The notes below the pieces were generated by a model, which saw only the letters and a program-made list of their open reading frames with translations, ran no database searches and was not told where the DNA came from. A stretch of 64,000 nucleotides of DNA from Mobula hypostoma (lineage: Eukaryota): contig NC_086097.1 of NCBI RefSeq assembly GCF_963921235.1, forward strand, positions 7,378,001-7,442,000, written 5' to 3'. Below, piece by piece: positions 2,796 through 55,800 of this stretch (within the stretch, counting starts at the first letter, position 1; each line of letters begins with the position of its first letter). A program made the translations under genes and the position numbers.

Positions 2796-5293
2796 AACAT
2801 AGAACATAGAATAGCACAGCACATTACAGGCCCTTCGGCCCACAATGTTGTGCCGACCATATAACCCCCAATTTAAATTTCTCCATATACCTGTCTAGTA
2901 GTCTCTTAAACTTCACTAGTGTATCTGCCTCCACCACTGACTCAGGCAGTGCATTCCACGCATCAACCACTCTCTGAGTAAAAAACCTTCCTCTAATATC
3001 CCCCTTGAACTTCCCATCCCTAACCTTAAAGACATGTCCTCTTCTATTGAGCAGTGGTGCCCTGGGGAAGAGGCGCTGGCTCTGCACTCGATCTATTCCT
3101 CTTATTATCTTGTACACCTCTATCATGTCTCCTCTCATCCTCCTTCTCTGCAAAGAGTAAAGCCCTAGCTCCCTTAATCTCTGATCATAATGCATAATCT
3201 CTAAACCAGGCAACATCCTGGTAAATCTCCTCTGTACCCTTTCCAATGCTTCCACATCCTTCCTAGAGTGAGGCGACCAGAACTGGACACAGTACTCCAA
3301 GTGTGGCCTAACCAGAGTTTTATAGAGCTGCATCATTACATCACGACTCTTAAACTCTATCCCTCAATTTATGAAAACTAACACCCCATAAGCTTTCTTA
3401 ACTACCCTATCTACCTGTGAAGCAACTTACAGGGATCTGTGGACATGTACCCCCAGATCCTTCTGCTCCTCCACACTACCAAGTATCCTTCCATTTACTT
3501 TGTACTCTGCCTTGGAGTTTGTCCTTCCAAAGTGTACCACCTCACACTTCTCCAGGTTGAACTCCATCTGCCACTTCTCAGCCCACTTCAGCATCCTATC
3601 AATGTCCCTCTGCAATCTTCGACAATCCTCTACACTATCTACAACACCACCAACCTTTGTGTCATCTGCAAACTTGCCAACCCACCCTTCTACCCCCACA
3701 TCCAGGTCGTTGATAAAAATCACGAAAAGTAGAGGTCCCAGAACTGATCCTTGTGGGACACCACCGGTCACAATCTTCCAATCTGAATGTACTCCCTCCA
3801 CCATGACCCTCTGCCTTCTGCAGGCAAGCCAATTCTGAATCCACCTGGCCAAACTTCCCTGGATCCCATACCTTCTGACTTTCTGAACAAGCCTACCGTG
3901 TGGAACCTTGTCAAATGCCTTACTAAAATCCATATAGATCACATCCACTACACTACCTTCATTTATATGCCTGGTCACCTCCTCAAAGAACTCTATCAGG
4001 CTTGTTAGACACGATCTGCCCTTCACAAAGCCATGCTGACTGTCCCTGATCAGACCATGATTCTCTAAATGCCCATAGATCCTATCTCTAAGAATCTTTT
4101 CCAACAGCTTTCCCACCACAGACGTAAGGTTCACTGGTCTATAATTACCCGAACTATCCCTACGACCTTTTTTGAACAAGGGGACAACATTCACCTCCCT
4201 CCAATCCTCCGGTACCATTCTCGTGGACAACGAGGACATAAAGGTCCTAGCCAGAGGCTCAGCAATCTCTTCCCTTGCCTCATGGAGCAGCCTGGGGAAT
4301 ATTCCATCAGGCCCTGGGGACTTACCTGTCCTAATATATTTTAAAAACTCCAACACCTCCTCTCCCTTAATATCAACATGCTCCAGAACATCAACCTCAC
4401 TCATATTGTCCTCACCATCATCAAGTTCCCTCACATTGGTGAATACCGAAGAGAAGTATTCACAGAGGACCTCGCTCACTTCCACAGCCTCCAGGCACAT
4501 CTTCCCACCTTTATCTCTAATCAGTCCTACCTTCACTCCTGTCATCCTTTTTTTCTTCACATAATTGAAGAATGCCTTGGGGTTTTCCTTTACCCTACTC
4601 ACCAAGGCCTTCTCATGCCCCCTTCTTGCTCTTCTCAGCCCCTTCTCAAGCTCCTTTTTTGCTTCCCTATATTCCTCAATAGACCCATCTGATCCTTGCT
4701 TCCTAAACCTCATGTATGCTGCCTTCTTCCACCTGACTAGATTTTCCACCTCACTTGTCACCCATGGTTCCTTCACCCTACCATTCTTTATCTTCCTCAC
4801 CGGGACAAATTTATCCCTAACATCCTGCAAGAGGTCTCTAAACATCGACCACATGTCTATAGTGCATTTCCCAGCAAAAACATCATCCCAATTCACAGCC
4901 ACAAGTTCTAGCCTTATAGCCTCATAATTTGCCCTTCCCCAGTTAAAAATTTTCCTATCCTCTCTGATTCTGTCCTTTTCCATGATAGTGCTGAAGGCTA
5001 GGGAGTGGTGGTCACTGTCCCCTAGATGCTCACCCACTGAGAGATCCGTGACCTGACCCGGTTTGTTCCCTATTACCAGATCTAGTCTGGCATTCCCCCT
5101 AGTCGGCCTGTCCACATACTGTTACGGGAATCCGTCCTGGACACACTCAACAAACTCTGCCCCATCTAAATCCTTGGAACTAATCAGGTGCCAATCAATA
5201 TTAGGGAAGTTAAAGTCACCCATGATAACAACCCTGTTATTTTTGCACCTTTCCAGAATCTGCCTCCCAATCTGCTCCACGGTATCTCTGTAT
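2796..5293 (-). mobile_element. Young 5'-truncated CR1 LINE
   Basis: End of APE endonuclease (MGDFNFPNIDW) through RT to a (ttctatg)n tail; one frameshift near 3427. Confidence 0.95.
3427..5115 (-). CDS. CR1 ORF2 fragment (reverse transcriptase), continued after a frameshift by 2824-3336
   Basis: 562-aa ORF with [37 protein letters not shown] and KFADD. Confidence 0.92.
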   Translation of the reverse strand: MDRPTRGNARLDLVIGNKPGQVTDLSVGEHLGDSDHHSLAFSTIMEKDRIREDRKIFNWGRANYEAIRLELVAVNWDDVFAGKCTIDMWSMFRDLLQDVRDKFVPVRKIKNGRVKEPWVTSEVENLVRWKKAAYMRFRKQGSDGSIEEYREAKKELEKGLRRARRGHEKALVSRVKENPKAFFNYVKKKRMTGVKVGLIRDKGGKMCLEAVEVSEVLCEYFSSVFTNVRELDDGEDNMSEVDVLEHVDIKGEEVLEFLKYIRTGKSPGPDGIFPRLLHEAREEIAEPLARTFMSSLSTRMVPEDWREVNVVPLFKKGRRDSSGNYRPVNLTSVVGKLLEKILRDRIYGHLENHGLIRDSQHGFVKGRSCLTSLIEFFEEVTRHINEGSVVDVIYMDFSKAFDKVPHGRLVQKVRRYGIQGSLARWIQNWLACRRQRVMVEGVHSDWKIVTGGVPQGSVLGPLLFVIFINDLDVGVEGWVGKFADDTKVGGVVDSVEDCRRLQRDIDRMLKWAEKWQMEFNLEKCEVVHFGRTNSKAEYKVNGRILGSVEEQKDLGVHVHRSL

Positions 5294-6009
5294 CGCTAGC
5301 GTGCAGGTCACCCTTGGGCAAGGTGTGGCTCCTCCTTAGCGCCACCCTCCCCAGTCATGGTTACGTGAAGCCATGGGAGGAGGTGGTAGATGGTTGTATG
5401 AGCAGCTGCTGCATATCACAATCCCTCGTGATGCGTCCACGGATGCCAGGCAGACAATCTCTGAAGAGTATTGATAATGACTGGGATCACCCATCTTGTA
5501 AAAACACTGCCCAGAAGAAGACAATGGCAAACTACTTCTGTAGAAAAATTTGCCAAGAAAGCATCATGGTCAAGACCATGATTGCCCATGTCATATGACA
5601 CAGCACATAATAATGATGATGATGATATATATGTCAGCGTATACAACTCTGAAATTCATTTTCTTATGGGAATACTCAATAAATCCAAGTACCATGATAG
5701 AATCAATGAAAATCTGTACCTAACAGGTGGGACAAATATCCAATGTGCAAAAGATAACAAACTGCAAACACAAAAGAAGAAAAAAAGAAACAATAAACAA
5801 ACAAACAAACAAACAAATAAATAAATAAGCAAGCAATAAATACTGAGAAAATGAGATGAAGGGTCCTTAAATGTGAGCCTATATGTTGTAGGAACAGTTC
5901 AGTGATGGGGCAAGTGAAGTTAAGTGGTTCCCTCTGCAATTCTTTAAGAATCTTTTATTCAAGATTGCTATCCTGGGACTTGTGCTGTTTAATTGTGGAA
6001 TGGATTTGA

Positions 6010-6490
6010 CCATAAGACCATAACACATACAGTAGGAGCAGAATTAGGCCATTCAGCCCATCTGCTCTATCGTTCAGTCATGGTTGATTTATATTCCCAT
6101 TCAACCCTATGTTCCCGCCTCCTCATTGTATTTGATAGCCTGATAAAATGAGCAACTATCAGTTTCCGTTTAATATATATCCAATGACTTGGCCTCAACA
6201 TGTGTCTGTGGTAATGAACTGCACAGTTTCATCACCCTCTGACTGAAGAAATTTCTCCTTATCTGTGTTCTAAAGTGATATCCTTTTATTCTGAGGCTGT
6301 GTCCTCTGGTCCTAGACCCTTCTACTATTTGAAACATCCTGTCTGCGTCAACTGGGCCTTTCAATATTCAGTAGGTTTCAATGAGGTTTCACCCTTGTTC
6401 TTCTAAATTCCAGTGAGTATGTGTCCAGAGCCATCAAACACACACTATATGTTAACCCTTCCATTCCTGGTATCATTCGTGTGAACACGA
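6010..6490 (-). mobile_element. CR1 3' remnant
   Basis: SRTRGHSLRIKG..FRTQIRRNFFSQRV; (cataagac)n tail. Confidence 0.85.
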
Positions 6491-29223: not shown

Positions 29224-29290
29224 TTATTATCACTGGCATGTGATATGAAATTTGTTAACTTAGCAGCAGCAGTTCAATTCAATACATAAT

Positions 29291-31461
29291 AGAAACATAG
29301 AAAAATAGAAAATAGGTGCAGGAGTAGGCCATTCGGCCCTTCGAGCCTGCACCGCCATTTATTATGATCATGGCTGATCATCCAACTCAGAACCCCGCCC
29401 CAGCCTTCCCTCCATACCCCCTGACCCCATAGCCACAAGGGCCATATCTAACTCCCTCTTAAATATAGCCAATGAACTGGCCTCAACTGTTTCCTGTGGC
29501 AGAGAATTCCACAGATTCACCACTCTCTGTGTGAAGAAGTTTTTCCTAATCTCGGTCCTAAAAGGCTTCCCCTCTATCCTCAAACTGTGGCCCCTCGTTC
29601 TGAACTTCCCCAACATCGGGAACAATCTTCCTGCATCTAGCCTGTCCAATCCCTTTAGGATTTTATACGTTTCAATCGGATCCCCCCTCAATCTTCTAAA
29701 TTCCAACGAGTACAAGCCCAGTTCATCCAGTCTTTCTTCATATGAAAGTCCTGCCATCCCAGGAATCAATCTGGCGAACCTTCTTTGTACTCCCTCTATG
29801 GCAAGGATGCCTTTCCTCAGATTAGGGGACCAAAACTGCACACAATACTCCAGGTGTGGTCTCACCAAGGCCTTGTACAACTGCAGTAGTACCTCCCTGC
29901 TCCTGTACTCGAATCCTCTCGCTATAGATGCCAGCATACCATTCGCCTTTTTCACCGCCTGCTGTACCTGCATGCCCACTTTCAATGACTGGTGTATAAT
30001 GACACCCAGGTCTCGTTGCACCTCTCCTTTTCCTAATCGGCCACCATTCAGATAATGATCTGTTTTCCTATTTTTGCCACCAAAGTGGATAACTTCACAT
30101 TTATCCACATTAAATTGCATCTGCCATGAATTTGCCCACTCACCCAACCTATCCAAGTCACCCTGCATCCTCTTAGCATCCTCCTCACAGCTAACACTGC
30201 CACCCAGCTTCGTGTCATCCGCAAACTTGGAGATGCGGCATTTAATTCCCTCATCCAAGTCGTTAATATATATTGTAAACAACTGGGGTCCCAGCACTGA
30301 GCCTTGCGGTACCCCACTAGTCACCGCCTGCCATTCTGAAAAGGTCCCGTTTATTCCCACTCTTTGCTTCCTGTCTGCTAACCAGTTCTCCACCCACACC
30401 AATACCTTACCCCCAATACTGTGTGCTTTAAGTTTGCACACTAATCTCCTGTGTGGGACCTTGTCAAAAGCCTTTTGAAAATCCAAATATACCACATCCA
30501 CTGGTTCTCCCCTATCCACTCTACTAGTTACATCCTCAAAAAATTCTATGAGATTCGTCAGACATGATTTTCCTTTCACAAATCCATGCTGACTTTGTCC
30601 GATGATTTCACCGCTTTCCAAATGTGCTGTTATCACATCCTTGATAACTGACTCCAGCAGTTTCCCCACCACCGACGTTAGGCTAACCGGTCTATAATTC
30701 CCCGGTTTCTCTCTCCCTCCTTTTTTAAAAAGTGGAGTTACATTAGCCACCCTCCAATCCTCAGGAACTAGCCCAGAATCTAACGGGTTTTGAAAAATTA
30801 TCACTAATGCATCCACTATTTCTTGGGCTACTTCCTTAAGCACTCTAGGATGCAGACCATCTGGCCCTGGGGATTTATCTGCCTTCAATCCCTTAAATTT
30901 ACCTAACACCACTTCCCTACTAACATGTATTTCGCTCAGTTCCTCCATCTCACTGGACCCTCTGTCCCCTACTATTTCTGGAAGATTATTTATGTCCTCC
31001 TTAGTGAAGACAGAACCAAAGTAATTATTCAATTGGTCTGCCATGTCCTTGCTCGCCATAATCAATTCACCTGTTTCTGTCTGCAGGGGACCTACATTTG
31101 TCTTTACCAGTCTTTTCCTTTTTACATATCTATAAAAGCTTTTACAGTCCGTTTTCATGTTCCCCGCCAGTTTTCTCTCATAATCTTTTTTCCCCTACCT
31201 AATTAAGCCCTTTGTCCTCCTCTGCTGAACTCTGAATTTCTCCCAGTCCTCTGGTGAGCCACTTTCTCTGGCTAATTTGTATGCTTCTTCTTTGGAATTG
31301 ATACTATCCCTAATTTCTCTTGTCAGCCACGGGTGCACTACCTTCCTTGATTTATTTTTTTGCCAAACTGGGATGAGCAATTGTTGTAGTTCATCCATGC
31401 AACCTTTAAATGCTTGCCATTGCATATCCACCGTCAATCCTTTAAGTGTCATTTGCCAGAT
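29291..31461 (-). mobile_element. Young 5'-truncated CR1 LINE
   Basis: Continuous RT ORF and intact 3' UTR; inserted at aatacataat|ctagcaga of the host element. Confidence 0.96.
29368..31158 (-). CDS. CR1 ORF2 reverse transcriptase region, 596 aa open
   Basis: [53 protein letters not shown]. Confidence 0.94.
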   Translation of the reverse strand: MKTDCKSFYRYVKRKRLVKTNVGPLQTETGELIMASKDMADQLNNYFGSVFTKEDINNLPEIVGDRGSSEMEELSEIHVSREVVLGKFKGLKADKSPGPDGLHPRVLKEVAQEIVDALVIIFQNPLDSGLVPEDWRVANVTPLFKKGGREKPGNYRPVSLTSVVGKLLESVIKDVITAHLESGEIIGQSQHGFVKGKSCLTNLIEFFEDVTSRVDRGEPVDVVYLDFQKAFDKVPHRRLVCKLKAHSIGGKVLVWVENWLADRKQRVGINGTFSEWQAVTSGVPQGSVLGPQLFTIYINDLDEGIKCRISKFADDTKLGGSVSCEEDAKRMQGDLDRLGEWANSWQMQFNVDKCEVIHFGGKNRKTDHYLNGGRLGKGEVQRDLGVIIHQSLKVGMQVQQAVKKANGMLASIARGFEYRSREVLLQLYKALVRPHLEYCVQFWSPNLRKGILAIEGVQRRFARLIPGMAGLSYEERLDELGLYSLEFRRLRGDPIETYKILKGLDRLDAGRLFPMLGKFRTRGHSLRIEGKPFRTEIRKNFFTQRVVNLWNSLPQETVEASSLAIFKRELDMALVAMGSGGMEGRLGRGSELDDQP

Positions 31462-43204: not shown

Positions 43205-43345
43205 AAGTCACAAACAAGAGGAAATCTGCAGATGCTGACAATCAAAGTGATACACGCAAAATGCTGGAGGAACTCAGCAGGCCAGGCAGCATCTATGGAA
43301 AAGAGCAAACAGTTGATGTTTTGTGCTGAGAACCTTCATCGGGAT
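43205..43345 (-). mobile_element. Short Penelope pLTR fragment
   Basis: aaatctgcagatgctg..gctggaggaactcagcaggccaggcagcatc..ccttcatc. Confidence 0.8.
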
Positions 43346-43407
43346 CTAAATAATTAATTGGAATTTGAAGAACACATTTGCAGGGAGATTCTGTTGAGCT
43401 GTACAAA

Positions 43408-43622
43408 TGATAGTAAGAATGAGCTGCCAGACCAGGTGGTAAATGCGGGTTCTTTTTTAACATTTAAGAATAAATTGGACAGATACACGGATGGGAGGTG
43501 TATGGAAGGATATGGTTCGTGTGCAGGTCAGTGGGACTAGGCAGAAAATAGTTCGGCACAGCCAAAAGGGCCAAAAGGCCTGTTTCTGTGCTGTAGTTTT
43601 TCTATGGTTTCTATGGTTTCTA
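43408..43622 (+). mobile_element. Short CR1 3' end
   Basis: NELPDQVVNAG..FKNKLDRY; (ttctatgg)n tail. Confidence 0.85.
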
Positions 43623-43663
43623 ATAATATTCCGAATATTATTCCTATTAATAATAATCCCAGT

Positions 43664-43847
43664 GGGGTGTATAGGGTGTCCAGAGAGAGAGGGGTTGCAC
43701 CTTTGGTGTATGGGCTTGTGTTGTTCAATCTTGGACAGCACACTCACCTTTGGACCCACTGGTCACCCGTGGCTCCAAGCTGTTGCTTGCATCCAACAGT
43801 GGCAACACTTCGATACACTGCTTCAACAGGCAGGCTAAGCCAGGTGA
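43664..43847 (+). ncRNA. Candidate HDV-like self-cleaving ribozyme (degenerate copy)
   Basis: P1, P2, P3, P4 and J4/2 GCTAA occur in the HDV order; details in findings. Confidence 0.6.
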
Positions 43848-43879
43848 GGACTCAACCCTTGTGAGATAGGGACATGTGC

Positions 43880-45445
43880 AGGAAAGACAGCAGAGCAGCA
43901 AAGGCTGGAGTTTCTGTGAAAATGAGGGAAGTGCAAGACAGATATATTCCAAATAAGAAGAAATTTTCAAAGGGAAGAAGGACACTACCGTGGCTGACAA
44001 GTGAAGTCAGAGCCAAAGTAAAAGCAAAAAAGAGGGCATACAAAGAAGCCAGAGCTAGTCAGAAGATAAAGGATTGAGGAGCTTTTAAAAACTTGCGGAA
44101 GGAAACTAAGAAGGTCATTCAGAAGGAAAAGATGAATTATGAGAGGAAGCTGGCGATTAATATCAAAGAAGATACTGAAAGCTTTTTTAAGTATATAAAG
44201 GGTAAAAGAGGGTCAAGGGCAGATATAGGACCAATACAAAATGACGGTGGAGATATTGTAATGAGAGACGCAGAGATGGCAGAGGAACTGAATGCGTATT
44301 TTGCATCAGTCTTCACAGTGGAAGACATCCGCAGTATACCGGTCATTAAAGAGTGTCAGGGAAATGAAGTTTGTGCAGTGCCAATTATGACTGAGAAGGT
44401 ACTCAGGAAGCTTATGGTCTGAGGGTGGATAAATCCCCTGCAACTGATAGAATGCACCCTTGGGTTCTGAAGGAAGTAGTTGGAGAGATTACGGAGGCAT
44501 AAATGATCATCTTTCAAGAATCAATAGATTCTGGCATTGTACCAGACAAATGGAAAATTGCAAATGTTACTCCACTATTTAAGAAGGGTTGGAGGCAGCA
44601 GAAAGGAAACTATAGACCTGTTAGCCTGACATCAGTGGTTGGGAATTTGTTGGAATTGATTGTTAGGGATGAGATTATGGAGTACCTGGAGGTACATGAC
44701 AAGATAGAGGATATACTTATATACACAGATACTGAATCTGTGGAATTCTCTGCCACAGCAAACTGTTGAGGCCAGTTCATTAGCTATGTTTAAAAGGAAG
44801 TTAGATATGGCCCTTGTGGCTACAGGGGTCAGGGGGTATGGAGGGAAGGCTGGGTTCTGAGTTGGATGATCAGCCATGATCATAATAAATGGCGGTGCAG
44901 GCTCGAAGGGCCGAATGGCCTACTCCTGCACCTATTTTCTATGTTTCTATGTTTCTATGTTTCTATATTGGAGAGGGTTCAGAGAAGTTTCACAAGAATG
45001 ATTCCAGGAATAAAGGGTTACCATATGAGGAATGTCTGTCAGCTCTTGGGCTGTATTCCCTGGACTTCCAAATGTTAAAAGGCCTGAACAGTTTCGATAT
45101 GGCAAAGTTATTTCTCATGGTAGAGGAGTCTAGGACAAGAGACAACGACTTCAGGATTGAAGGACATCCTTTTAGAACTGAAATGCAGAGAAATTACTTT
45201 AGTCAGAGGGTGATAATTCTGTGGTATTTGTTGCCATGAGCGGCTGTGGAGGTCAAGTCATTGGGTGCATTTAAGGCAGAGATAGATAGGTTCTTGATTA
45301 GCCAGGGCATCAAAGGGTATGGGGAGAAGGCAGGGGTATGGAGATGACTGGAAGAATTGAATCAGCCCATGATTGAATGGCGGAGCAGACTCGATGGGCC
45401 AAATAGTCTACTTCTGCTCCTATATCTTATGGTCTTATAGTTTTA
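43880..45445 (+). mobile_element. CR1 with internal deletion and a nested young CR1 3' end
   Basis: FFKYIKGKR, LNAYFASVF, NYRPVSLTS, then LERVQRSFTRM. Confidence 0.9.
44733..44966 (+). mobile_element. Very young CR1 3' end
   Basis: Essentially identical to the reverse complement of about 55416-55640; (tttctatg)n tail. Confidence 0.9.
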
Positions 45446-45720
45446 TGATCTAATGCCTGTCCTACCATGTGAAGTCAGTTCCAGTGGACTGGGAGGATGA
45501 GAACAGCAGTTAGATCAAATGGCCAGTTCTTCAATGCTCTATGGAAAGTGAAGGGCACGACAAGGTACATATGAATTCATGGTCATCGACTGCAACCAAG
45601 GAAGACCCCAGTTGTGATGACTACTCAAAGCTCGAGGTGTAGACTTCCATGGTTGAAAGAGTGGAACTATCCCAGTGCAACAGCTTTTCCACTTTAGAAA
45701 TTCTCCCTCACAGACTTCCT

Positions 45721-46002
45721 ATCAGAATCAGAATCAGAATCAGGTTTATTATCATTGGCATGTGATGTGAAATTTGTTAACTTAGCAGCAGCAGTTCAAT
45801 GCAATACATAATCTAGCAGAGAAAAAGATAATAAAGAAAATAAAAATAGTAATAATAATAAAAAAAAAAGTAAATCAATTACATTTGTATATATATTGAA
45901 TAGATTTTAAGAAATGTGCTAAAACAGAAATACTGTTTATTAAAAGAAAGTGAGGTAGTGTCTGAAGATTCAATGTCCATTTAGGAATGGAATGGCAGAG
46001 GG
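45721..46002 (-). mobile_element. Rex1/Babar 3' tail
   Basis: (atcaga)n followed by sequence colinear with the 28731-31645 host element. Confidence 0.8.
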
Positions 46003-49554: not shown

Positions 49555-50127
49555 ATGCAGCCTGCAACTTAACCTTAAGGGGATTTTGCATAAGGACTCC
49601 CAAGTCTCTTTGCAACTCAGTTTTTTTTTGTATTTTCTCTCCATTTATAAAATAGTCATCCATAGAAACACAGAAAACAATACAGGCTCTTCAGCCCACA
49701 ATGCTGTGCTGTACATGGACTTTAGAAATTACCTGGGGTTACACATAGCCCCTTTTTAAGCTCCATGTACCTATCCAAGAGTTTCTTAAAAGACCATATT
49801 GTATCTGCCTCCACCACCATTGTTGGCAGCATATTCCACGCACTCATCACTCTCTGTGTAAAAACTTGGCATCTGGCATTTCCTCTGTACCTACTTCAAA
49901 GCACCTTAAAACTGTTTGTAGTTTCCTTTCTTCTGCCTCTCTCCCTTCTTGGAGAGTGGAGTGACATTTGCAATTTTTCAGTCTTCTGGAACCATTCCAA
50001 AATCTAGTGACTCTTGAAAGATCATTACCAATGTCTCCACAATCACTTTCAGAACCCTGGGGTTTACACCATCTGGTCCAGGTGACTTATCTACCTTCAG
50101 ACCTTTCAAGTTTCCCAAAAACATTCT
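49555..50127 (-). mobile_element. CR1 fragments (at least two elements)
   Basis: RT pieces (KSPGPDG region at about 50065-50095) and a 3' end at 49660-49915. Confidence 0.75.
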
Positions 50128-50288
50128 CTGCCTGGGGTGTGGCTGCTGTTGCATGCAAACAGCTACGGGGAGCCACAGTTGAGAGCTGAGTGCCGGGTGG
50201 GGACCAAATGTGGACTAACTGCCTTGAAAAGGACGCGACATGTTCCCCCACCAGAGGTGCTACCCGTCCCTGACACCCCATACACCCC
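50128..50288 (-). ncRNA. Second, 3'-truncated copy of the HDV-like leader
   Basis: Perfect P1 GGGGTGT/ACACCCC, P3 GGC/GCC, L3 TCCCC plus hairpin; P4 and the 3' strand of P2 are lost. Confidence 0.55.
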
Positions 50289-55415: not shown

Positions 55416-55800
55416 TAGAAACATAGAAACATAGAAAATAGGTGCAGGAGTAGGCCATTCGGCCCTTCGAGCCTGCACCGCCATTTATTATGATCATGGC
55501 TGATCATCCAACTCAGAACCCAGCCTTCCCTCCATACCCCCTGACCCCTGTAGCCACAAGGGCCATATCTAACTTCCTTTTAAACATAGCTAATGAACTG
55601 GCCTCAACAGTTTGCTGTGGCAGAGAATTCCACAGATTCACCACTCTCTGTGTGAAGAAGTTTTTCCTAACCTCGGTCCTAAAAGGCTTCCCCTCTATCC
55701 TCAAACTGTGACCCCTCGTTCTAGACCTCCCCAACATCGGGAACAATCTTCCTGCATCTAGCCTGTCCAATCCCTTTAGGATCTTATACGTTTCAATCAG
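55416..55800 (-). mobile_element. Very young CR1 3' end
   Basis: DRLDAGRLFPMLGRSRTRGHSLRIEG..; same subfamily as the copies at 29291 and 44733. Confidence 0.93.

Follow-up and report, generated by a model that had tools for sequence, protein, structure and literature searches.

A putative large HDV-like ribozyme with a hairpin in L3 at the head of an old SINE-like retroposon family of Mobula hypostoma

The window, i.e., the whole stretch of 64,000 nucleotides that was analyzed, contains two copies of the head of a short retroposon. The first is a decayed, ribozyme-like sequence of 184 nt, the helices of which were read directly from the sequence; the second lies on the opposite strand.

43664-43847, + strand: ribozyme-like head of the short retroposon, decayed
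43664-43670, + strand: P1 5' strand, GGGGTGT, with the putative cleavage before G43664
43671-43762, + strand: J1/2, 92 nt, a self-contained imperfect hairpin forming a P1.2-like peripheral domain in the minimum free energy (MFE) folds of the window copy and of the family majority head
43763-43769, + strand: P2 5' strand, TCACCCG (TCACCTG in the family)
43771-43773, + strand: P3 5' strand, GGC
43774-43801, + strand: L3, starting with TCCAAG and followed by the inserted hairpin CTGTTG/CAACAG at 43780-43799
43802-43804, + strand: P3 3' strand, GCA (GCC in the family), with 2 of 3 pairs in the window copy
43805-43811, + strand: P1 3' strand, ACACTTC (ACACCCC in the family), making 7 pairs with the 5' strand, 2 of them G-U
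43812-43813, + strand: P1.1 partner position, GA in the window copy (GG in the family majority)
43818-43833, + strand: P4 hairpin, CTGCTT/AGGCAG, paired
43834-43840, + strand: J4/2, GCTAAGC, with C43835 at the place of the catalytic C
43841-43847, + strand: P2 3' strand, CAGGTGA, with 6 of 7 pairs in the window copy and one C-A mismatch
43848-43876, + strand: short retroposon body, ending where a nested LINE interrupts it, from alignment with family copies
50132-50288, − strand: second head copy, family positions 2-159, 82% identical to the family copy L004 and starting with GGGGTGT

An HDV-like ribozyme fold had been proposed at this site from the letters of the DNA, and each of the elements named in that original prediction (P1, P2, P3, L3, P4, and J4/2) was found where it had been placed. 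Both window copies were said to begin at the first G of P1, and they do so at 43664 on the + strand and at 50288 on the − strand. The first copy was further described as decayed through loss of the P1.1 GG and of one P3 pair. We confirmed these losses and found that, relative to the family, one P2 pair is missing as well; the copy also fails a relaxed HDV descriptor (defined below). It is dead, and taken as a single sequence it resembles an HDV-like ribozyme no better than chance. A covariance model of the family core (R1) scored this copy at 80 bits (43756-43853) and the second head copy at 49.7 bits (50189-50091). The run of R1 across the window gave these two matches, both of them head copies already known.

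Both head copies adjoin pieces of a LINE, and both are dead, each disrupted by that nested LINE. The features downstream of the first head copy were as follows.

43877-45452, + strand: fragment of a LINE with apurinic endonuclease and reverse transcriptase (APE/RT), nested, 5' truncated, and internally deleted, outside the ribozyme-bearing element
44708-44957, + strand: repeat of ~250 bp inside the nested LINE, recurring in the window
45453-45724 (about), + strand: the rest of the same short retroposon copy, family positions ~233-495, from a BLAST search of L004 against the window

A better copy of the LINE, L067, has a 628-aa open frame in which Pfam searches identified Exo_endo_phos_2 (aa 16-108) and RVT_1 (aa 386-608). 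Window positions 43865-44707 matched L067 (reverse complement) at 2932-3776 with 90% identity, and 44967-45434 matched L067 at 5745-6244 (i.e., its 3' end). The window piece starts 434 nt into the L067 frame, past the endonuclease domain. The LINE joins the head at position ~213 in the first copy and at ~160 in the second copy (50132-50288), which also runs into a truncated piece of this LINE. Because the short element resumes after the LINE, the piece is truncated past the endonuclease domain, and the two junctions differ, the LINE is a nested insertion. It is an extremely abundant element; a search with 68 aa of it gave 212,464 first-look candidates. Further copies lie in the window, one of which runs on upstream of the junction point. 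A Pfam search of eight decayed LINE fragments of the window returned nothing.

These observations bear on whether the ribozyme-like head originally formed the 5' end of the LINE next to it, for which a probable Ingi/Vingi type had been proposed. Such an origin would agree with the presence of the LINE open reading frame next to the head in both window copies. It conflicts with the resumption of the short element beyond the LINE at about 45453-45724, with the truncated start of the piece, with the upstream extension of another window copy past the junction point, and with the different junctions in the two head copies. Additionally, L067 showed no similarity to the short element, and the element body showed none to the 3' ends of the abundant LINE. 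We regard a LINE-owned head as extremely improbable, and for this window it is refuted. The original placement of the fold at a retroelement 5' end is therefore true of the short retroposon and false for the LINE that bears the open reading frame, which is nested at 43877-45452; the assignment to an Ingi/Vingi-type family is left unsupported, because that reading frame belongs to a nested fragment without similarity to the head's element.

Some features of these insertions were recorded separately. Copies of the ~250-bp repeat occur at 55416-55668 (− strand) and 29289-29547 (− strand), one 96% and one 90% identical, which points to a short repeat family of much younger age. Another repeat (45720-45826), with an (AATCAG)n-like start, truncates the retroposon copy at 45453-45724 on its 3' side and recurs at six or more further sites in the window. 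The second head copy ends at family position ~160, where it passes directly into the LINE piece at 49665-50131 (− strand); the window contained no other remainder of its short element, and a clear target-site duplication was lacking. This arrangement could have arisen by nested insertion combined with a deletion, or it could be a chimera produced by template switching.

The head belongs to a dispersed family. A search of the 3.48-Gb genome with positions 43664-43900 gave 1,140 first-look candidates, and the 40 that were scored all had E values of ≤6.3e-22. With the full copy L004 as the query, first-look candidates numbered at least 7,816; the identities of the best 39 were 78 to 83%. Identities between query copies and sampled copies ranged from 70 to 83%. 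As anticipated, the 5' ends of the copies cluster at GGGGTGT. When 200 nt of upstream flank was included in the query, homology started at 43660-43668 in 28 of the 29 other loci, and at least 6 of the first 9 alignment columns were matched by 53 of 59 heads. Approximately 525 to 540 bp were common to loci that were compared with each other. The 42 copies with both ends mapped were ~465 to 681 bp long (mostly 515 to 549 bp), and the 3' tail of the family consists of a stem-loop and then ...CAACCACCA. Of the 42 full copies, 25 were flanked by exact direct repeats of 7 nt or more, whereas such repeats occurred in 30 of 820 control pairs that were mismatched. In 19 of the 25 repeat-flanked copies, the upstream repeat ended no more than 2 nt from G1. 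These target-site duplications are variable in length (7 to 12 bp).

On the basis of the sharp 5' end, the duplications, and the tail, we identify the 184 nt as the head of a short non-LTR retroposon, the RNA of which starts at G1. The family is short (~525 bp), noncoding, dispersed, SINE-like, and old. Both the copy ends and the duplications fit the start of P1 as the RNA 5' end and, by position, as the putative cleavage site. A solo LTR with TG...CA ends was considered and rejected because the duplications vary from 7 to 12 bp, copies are occasionally truncated at the 5' end, and the tail is a stem-loop. An ARAGORN scan of 4 family loci predicted no tRNA genes, and an Rfam search of 12 family loci at an E value of ≤10 gave 5 unrelated matches, none of which was inside a head. 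Because neither a tRNA nor an Rfam small-RNA head was found, the element has no evident internal polymerase III promoter, and a polymerase III small-RNA origin of the head (tRNA, 5S, or 7SL) is unsupported in the loci scanned. In the search for a partner LINE, tail-only copies were absent from the 60 loci and the window.

We evaluated the fold with an alignment (A1) of 59 heads, which were the best BLAST hits to two seeds, with no random draw. In the family majority, P1 is GGGGTGT/ACACCCC, with 7 of 7 pairs Watson-Crick. P2 is TCACCTG/CAGGTGA and can extend to 10 bp, and P3 is GGC/GCC (3 of 3 pairs), with all three pairs Watson-Crick in 37 of the 59 copies. L3 reads UCCAAGUA and continues into an extra 5-bp hairpin before the P3 3' strand. 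The P1 3' strand is followed by GG (P1.1), P4, and J4/2 with the sequence GCUAAAC. The consensus thus has the P1.1 GG and the full P2 pairing on which the original prediction depended, and the HDV-type helix order, which holds in the window copy, improves in the majority. All 33 named pairs are standard in the majority of the 59 copies, and 86.3% of the cells in this fold are paired, compared with 33 to 50% when the partners were slid. The window copy and the majority differ at 12 paired positions; pairs form at 12 of 12 of these in the majority and at 6 of 12 in the window copy. A prediction made from a broken copy therefore held out of sample, since the majority restores the pairing. The canonical HDV double-pseudoknot order (P1, P2, P3, P1.1, and P4) can be drawn at the level of one ancestral sequence.

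The positions expected to matter for catalysis are well kept. In HDV, the catalytic C of J4/2 is C75; a C is present at this position in 54 of the 59 copies, and the CNRA motif is present in 51. In L3, position 1 is U in 55 copies, positions 2 and 3 are C in 52 and 53, respectively, and position 6 is G in 56 of the 59. The extra hairpin sits after L3 position 8, at the 3' edge of L3, and is kept (at least 4 of 5 positions paired) in 56 of 59 copies, so that the hairpin-expanded L3 first noticed in the window copy is present family-wide. At least 5 of the 6 P4 pairs are retained in 45 copies. Across the 59 copies, 89.0% of the cells in the 31 pairs of the J1/2 hairpin are paired. Of the two P1.1 columns, column 165 has G in 36 copies and A in 19, and column 166 has G in 47, all out of 59; the losses of GG fit CpG-type decay. 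All core features are kept together in only 3 of the 59 sampled copies (L008, L042, and L060). In the unconstrained MFE fold of the majority head, the J1/2 hairpin, P2, P3, the L3 hairpin, and P4 all form. Bases 1 to 7 are unpaired and their 7-nt complement is largely unpaired in the same model, as a pseudoknotted P1 would require.

Two features depart from the HDV type. The cleavage-site pair of HDV is a G·U wobble, which the majority does not have; its pair is G1-C, and the partner column is C in 42 and T in 14 of the 59 copies. L3 is 28 to 29 nt long instead of about 7 to 8 nt, and among the 13 descriptor solutions on the majority, the 6 listed all have an L3 of 28 nt. Taking the L3 hairpin as P3 itself was rejected, as this would leave 12 plus 4 unpaired nt at tight junctions and no CC for P1.1. 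We know of no precedent for a 29-nt L3 with a hairpin in this loop of the catalytic core. A literature search, which was not exhaustive, yielded no description of a hairpin inside L3, and this feature appears to be unreported so far. In the literature searched, HDV-like ribozymes and sharks were mentioned together in a single paper, which concerns R2.

A difference in P2 was noted at column 120 of A1 (window position 43768), which is C in 13 of the 59 copies, including the window copy, and T in the others; the C gives the C-A mismatch of P2. Because the CA decay product is nearly absent, the difference suggests a subfamily rather than random CpG decay.

Among known systems, the putative ribozyme resembles the large HDV-like ribozymes. 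Genomic HDV differs: its cleavage-site pair is G·U, its L3 has about 8 nt, and its J1/2 spans a few nucleotides, compared with G-C, 28 to 29 nt, and about 92 to 97 nt here. The two share the P3-L3-P3'-P1'-GG layout, with U, CC, and G at L3 positions 1, 2-3, and 6, as well as G-C-N-A-A in J4/2, according to excerpts of PMC13635239. The L3 G, its L3 U partner, and the catalytic C are described as conserved features (PMC3774820 and PMC13635239, in part). The large Agam-2 HDV-like ribozymes of Anopheles gambiae are reported, in the portion of PMC4908430 consulted, to owe their activation to a helix that structures J1/2, together with short linkers and a lengthened P2. Agam-2 and the Mobula family both have a J1/2 hairpin (P1.2) between short linkers, the canonical core order, and a P2 extended beyond 7 bp (12 bp in Agam-2 and 10 bp in the Mobula family) (PMC4908430, same portion). 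They differ in that the J1/2 hairpin is longer here (~92 nt), L3 contains a hairpin here, the host here is a probable cartilaginous fish, and the ribozyme here is a putative one; sequence homology between the two was undetectable (no Rfam match).

HDV-like ribozymes in R2, RTE, Baggins, L1Tc, and some nonautonomous elements free the element RNA from cotranscripts, as stated in excerpts of PMC6765202. In R2, the P1 and P1' strands lie 23 to >700 nt apart (PMC3774820, in part), and because of this range, a long J1/2 is no obstacle here. The family resembles R2, as R2 is described in sections of PMC3774820, in having its putative ribozyme at the extreme 5' end of a non-LTR element, where in R2 the ribozyme defines the 5' end of an RNA released from a cotranscript, and in the conservation of the L3 G and the catalytic C with P1 and P1' potentially far apart. 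Internally deleted, nonautonomous derivatives retaining the ribozyme are another point of likeness (PMC3774820 and PMC3414825, in part). R2 is site specific for 28S rDNA, whereas the family here is dispersed and has variable 7- to 12-bp duplications, and the sections of PMC3774820 consulted do not describe an L3 hairpin for R2. A further parallel is Pr77 of L1Tc/NARTc in Trypanosoma cruzi, a 5' HDV-like ribozyme common to a LINE and a short nonautonomous partner (excerpts of PMC3383444 and PMC3185411). Pr77 is compact (77 nt) and is also a promoter, whereas the head here is ~200 nt long with two inserted hairpins (PMC3383444 and PMC3185411, same excerpts). An autonomous partner with the same head, as in L1Tc/NARTc, was not found in the 60 loci and the window.

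We consider it probable that the head represents a large-type ribozyme of the HDV family that processed RNA 5' ends, had a hairpin in L3, and headed an old and now inactive SINE-like retroposon family. In this proposal, the ancestral first ~200 nt would be a putative self-cleaving ribozyme. Its P1 (7 bp) would start from the first base of the element, J1/2 would form a stand-alone hairpin of ~92 nt between short linkers, P2 would be extended to 10 bp, and P3 (GGC/GCC) would enclose the L3 hairpin, with P1.1, P4, and J4/2 following. The element RNA would be transcribed within longer host or read-through transcripts; we propose cotranscription because the element lacks a recognizable polymerase III head. 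The ribozyme would then cut just before G1 and leave an RNA with the exact 5' end of the element. A presumed partner LINE would copy this RNA into new sites by target-primed reverse transcription, producing the 7- to 12-bp target-site duplications. A broader statement, to which we give tentative and slightly less than balanced credence, is that the HDV fold may tolerate both a J1/2 of ~92 nt and a hairpin in L3, placed after the conserved G and ahead of the P3 3' strand, and may in this form drive 5'-end formation of a SINE-like retroposon of many thousand copies without a polymerase III head in a cartilaginous fish.

The principal competing explanation, which we judge less likely but serious, is a chance resemblance: the head would be a structured 5' region with another role (e.g., an internal promoter, a binding site for a partner protein, or a stability element), and G1 would be a transcription start rather than a cleavage site. 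Relaxed HDV-like drawings are indeed common. A relaxed descriptor (P1 with at least 6 of 7 pairs, P2 with at least 6 of 7 pairs, three Watson-Crick pairs in P3, a 2-bp P1.1, P4 of at least 4 bp, CNRA in J4/2, and L3 of 6 to 35 nt) matched 60 of 27,064 G starts on both strands of the window. Anchored at base 1, it matched 27 of 3,000 and 522 of 60,000 dinucleotide shuffles of the majority head (~0.9%). Moreover, a transcription start predicts a sharp 5' end equally well, and the site pair is G1-C. Rfam gave no matches for the whole window at the gathering threshold and, for 43300-44300 at an E value of ≤10, one unrelated snoRNA-like match and no HDV-type model; such an outcome is expected if the two inserted hairpins break HDV-type models. 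Covariation did not exceed the shuffle controls in the 33 fold pairs or the 31 J1/2 pairs, and the observed paired-cell percentage was reached by 377 of 500 shuffles. The 59 copies appear to have decayed neutrally from one master, which deprives this test of power and leaves the fold resting on one ancestral sequence. The RNAalifold consensus was weak (only −2.77 kcal/mol), and nested-fold stability was unremarkable (z = +0.59 for L008 and z = −1.77 for the window copy). The 5' end also has a competing pairing: in the MFE folds of L008 and the window copy, the 5' GGGUG pairs with CACCC of the P2 5' strand instead. Against chance resemblance stands the strict descriptor, i.e., the relaxed one plus UCC..G in L3 and GG after P1. 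The majority passes it; of 60,000 dinucleotide shuffles anchored at base 1, 5 did so, as did none of the 27,064 window positions, although these figures are optimistic because the descriptor was written after the sequence had been seen. What exceeds chance is the family majority rather than the single window copy. Furthermore, the majority repairs all of the defects of the window copy (12 of 12), UCC..G, GG, and GCUAA occur at their canonical places, and a polymerase III-type head was not detected.

An improbable third reading accepts the HDV-like descent and places the failure in the chemistry: the head of the master element would have cleaved poorly or not at all, owing to the L3 hairpin and G1-C, and would have been kept as a folded 5' domain. 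It draws on the position of the insertion inside L3, which is part of the catalytic core according to excerpts of PMC4908430, and on a site pair that is G-C and not G·U. However, the hairpin lies at the 3' edge of L3, past the U, CC, and G positions, and noncanonical P1.1 pairs are tolerated by cellular HDV ribozymes (PMC13635239, in part). Thousands of copies with a precise G1 end also imply that some precise 5'-end-forming step was needed.

If the large HDV-family ribozyme is real, then descriptors with a fixed L3 length and current Rfam models would systematically miss a class of vertebrate HDV-like ribozymes, and other "promoterless" SINE-like families may likewise define their RNAs by ribozymes. 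It would explain a defined 5' end in a SINE-like element without a polymerase III head. A dispersed, high-copy-number, noncoding vertebrate family using an HDV-like ribozyme would widen the known picture of R2, RTE, Baggins, and L1Tc. As L3 is part of the active site, an active natural hairpin graft would show where the core can expand and would serve both ribozyme engineering and the rewriting of search descriptors. If the RNA does not cleave, the case would be a useful warning, given that a relaxed descriptor matches 60 places in 64 kb by chance.

Several minor observations concern the 5' end and individual copies. The P1 5' strand is duplicated, with GGGGTGT at bases 1 to 7 and again at bases 10 to 16 (window positions 43664-43679; A1 columns 1 to 16), and the second GGGGTGT is sequestered in the J1/2 hairpin in the folds. 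A few copies (L032 and L040) start near this second repeat. The duplication recalls a model for R2 in which P1 duplication extends the element 5' end (PMC3774820, in part). In L018, the head is followed by a long, near-perfect inverted repeat (MITE-like), ~230 to 330 nt after the element start, which replaces the usual body.

The retroposon in L004 (1441-2120) is inserted within a frame that we take, from reading by eye, to be a gypsy-type reverse transcriptase (..FFFVRKKDGKLHACIDYW..), and this gypsy-like frame can be followed on both sides of the inserted copy. Contigs of four public runs covered the LINE 3' end that flanks the L008 copy (1300-1500) in all four organisms. Clusters of starts or ends were not reported in these contigs, a type of data that does not record RNA ends. 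The short retroposon itself (L008, 1503-2024) was covered only in the X1 and X2 contigs (at least 80% likeness), with X4 and X5 covering only the upstream LINE flank, and the retroposon family may be restricted to part of the group.
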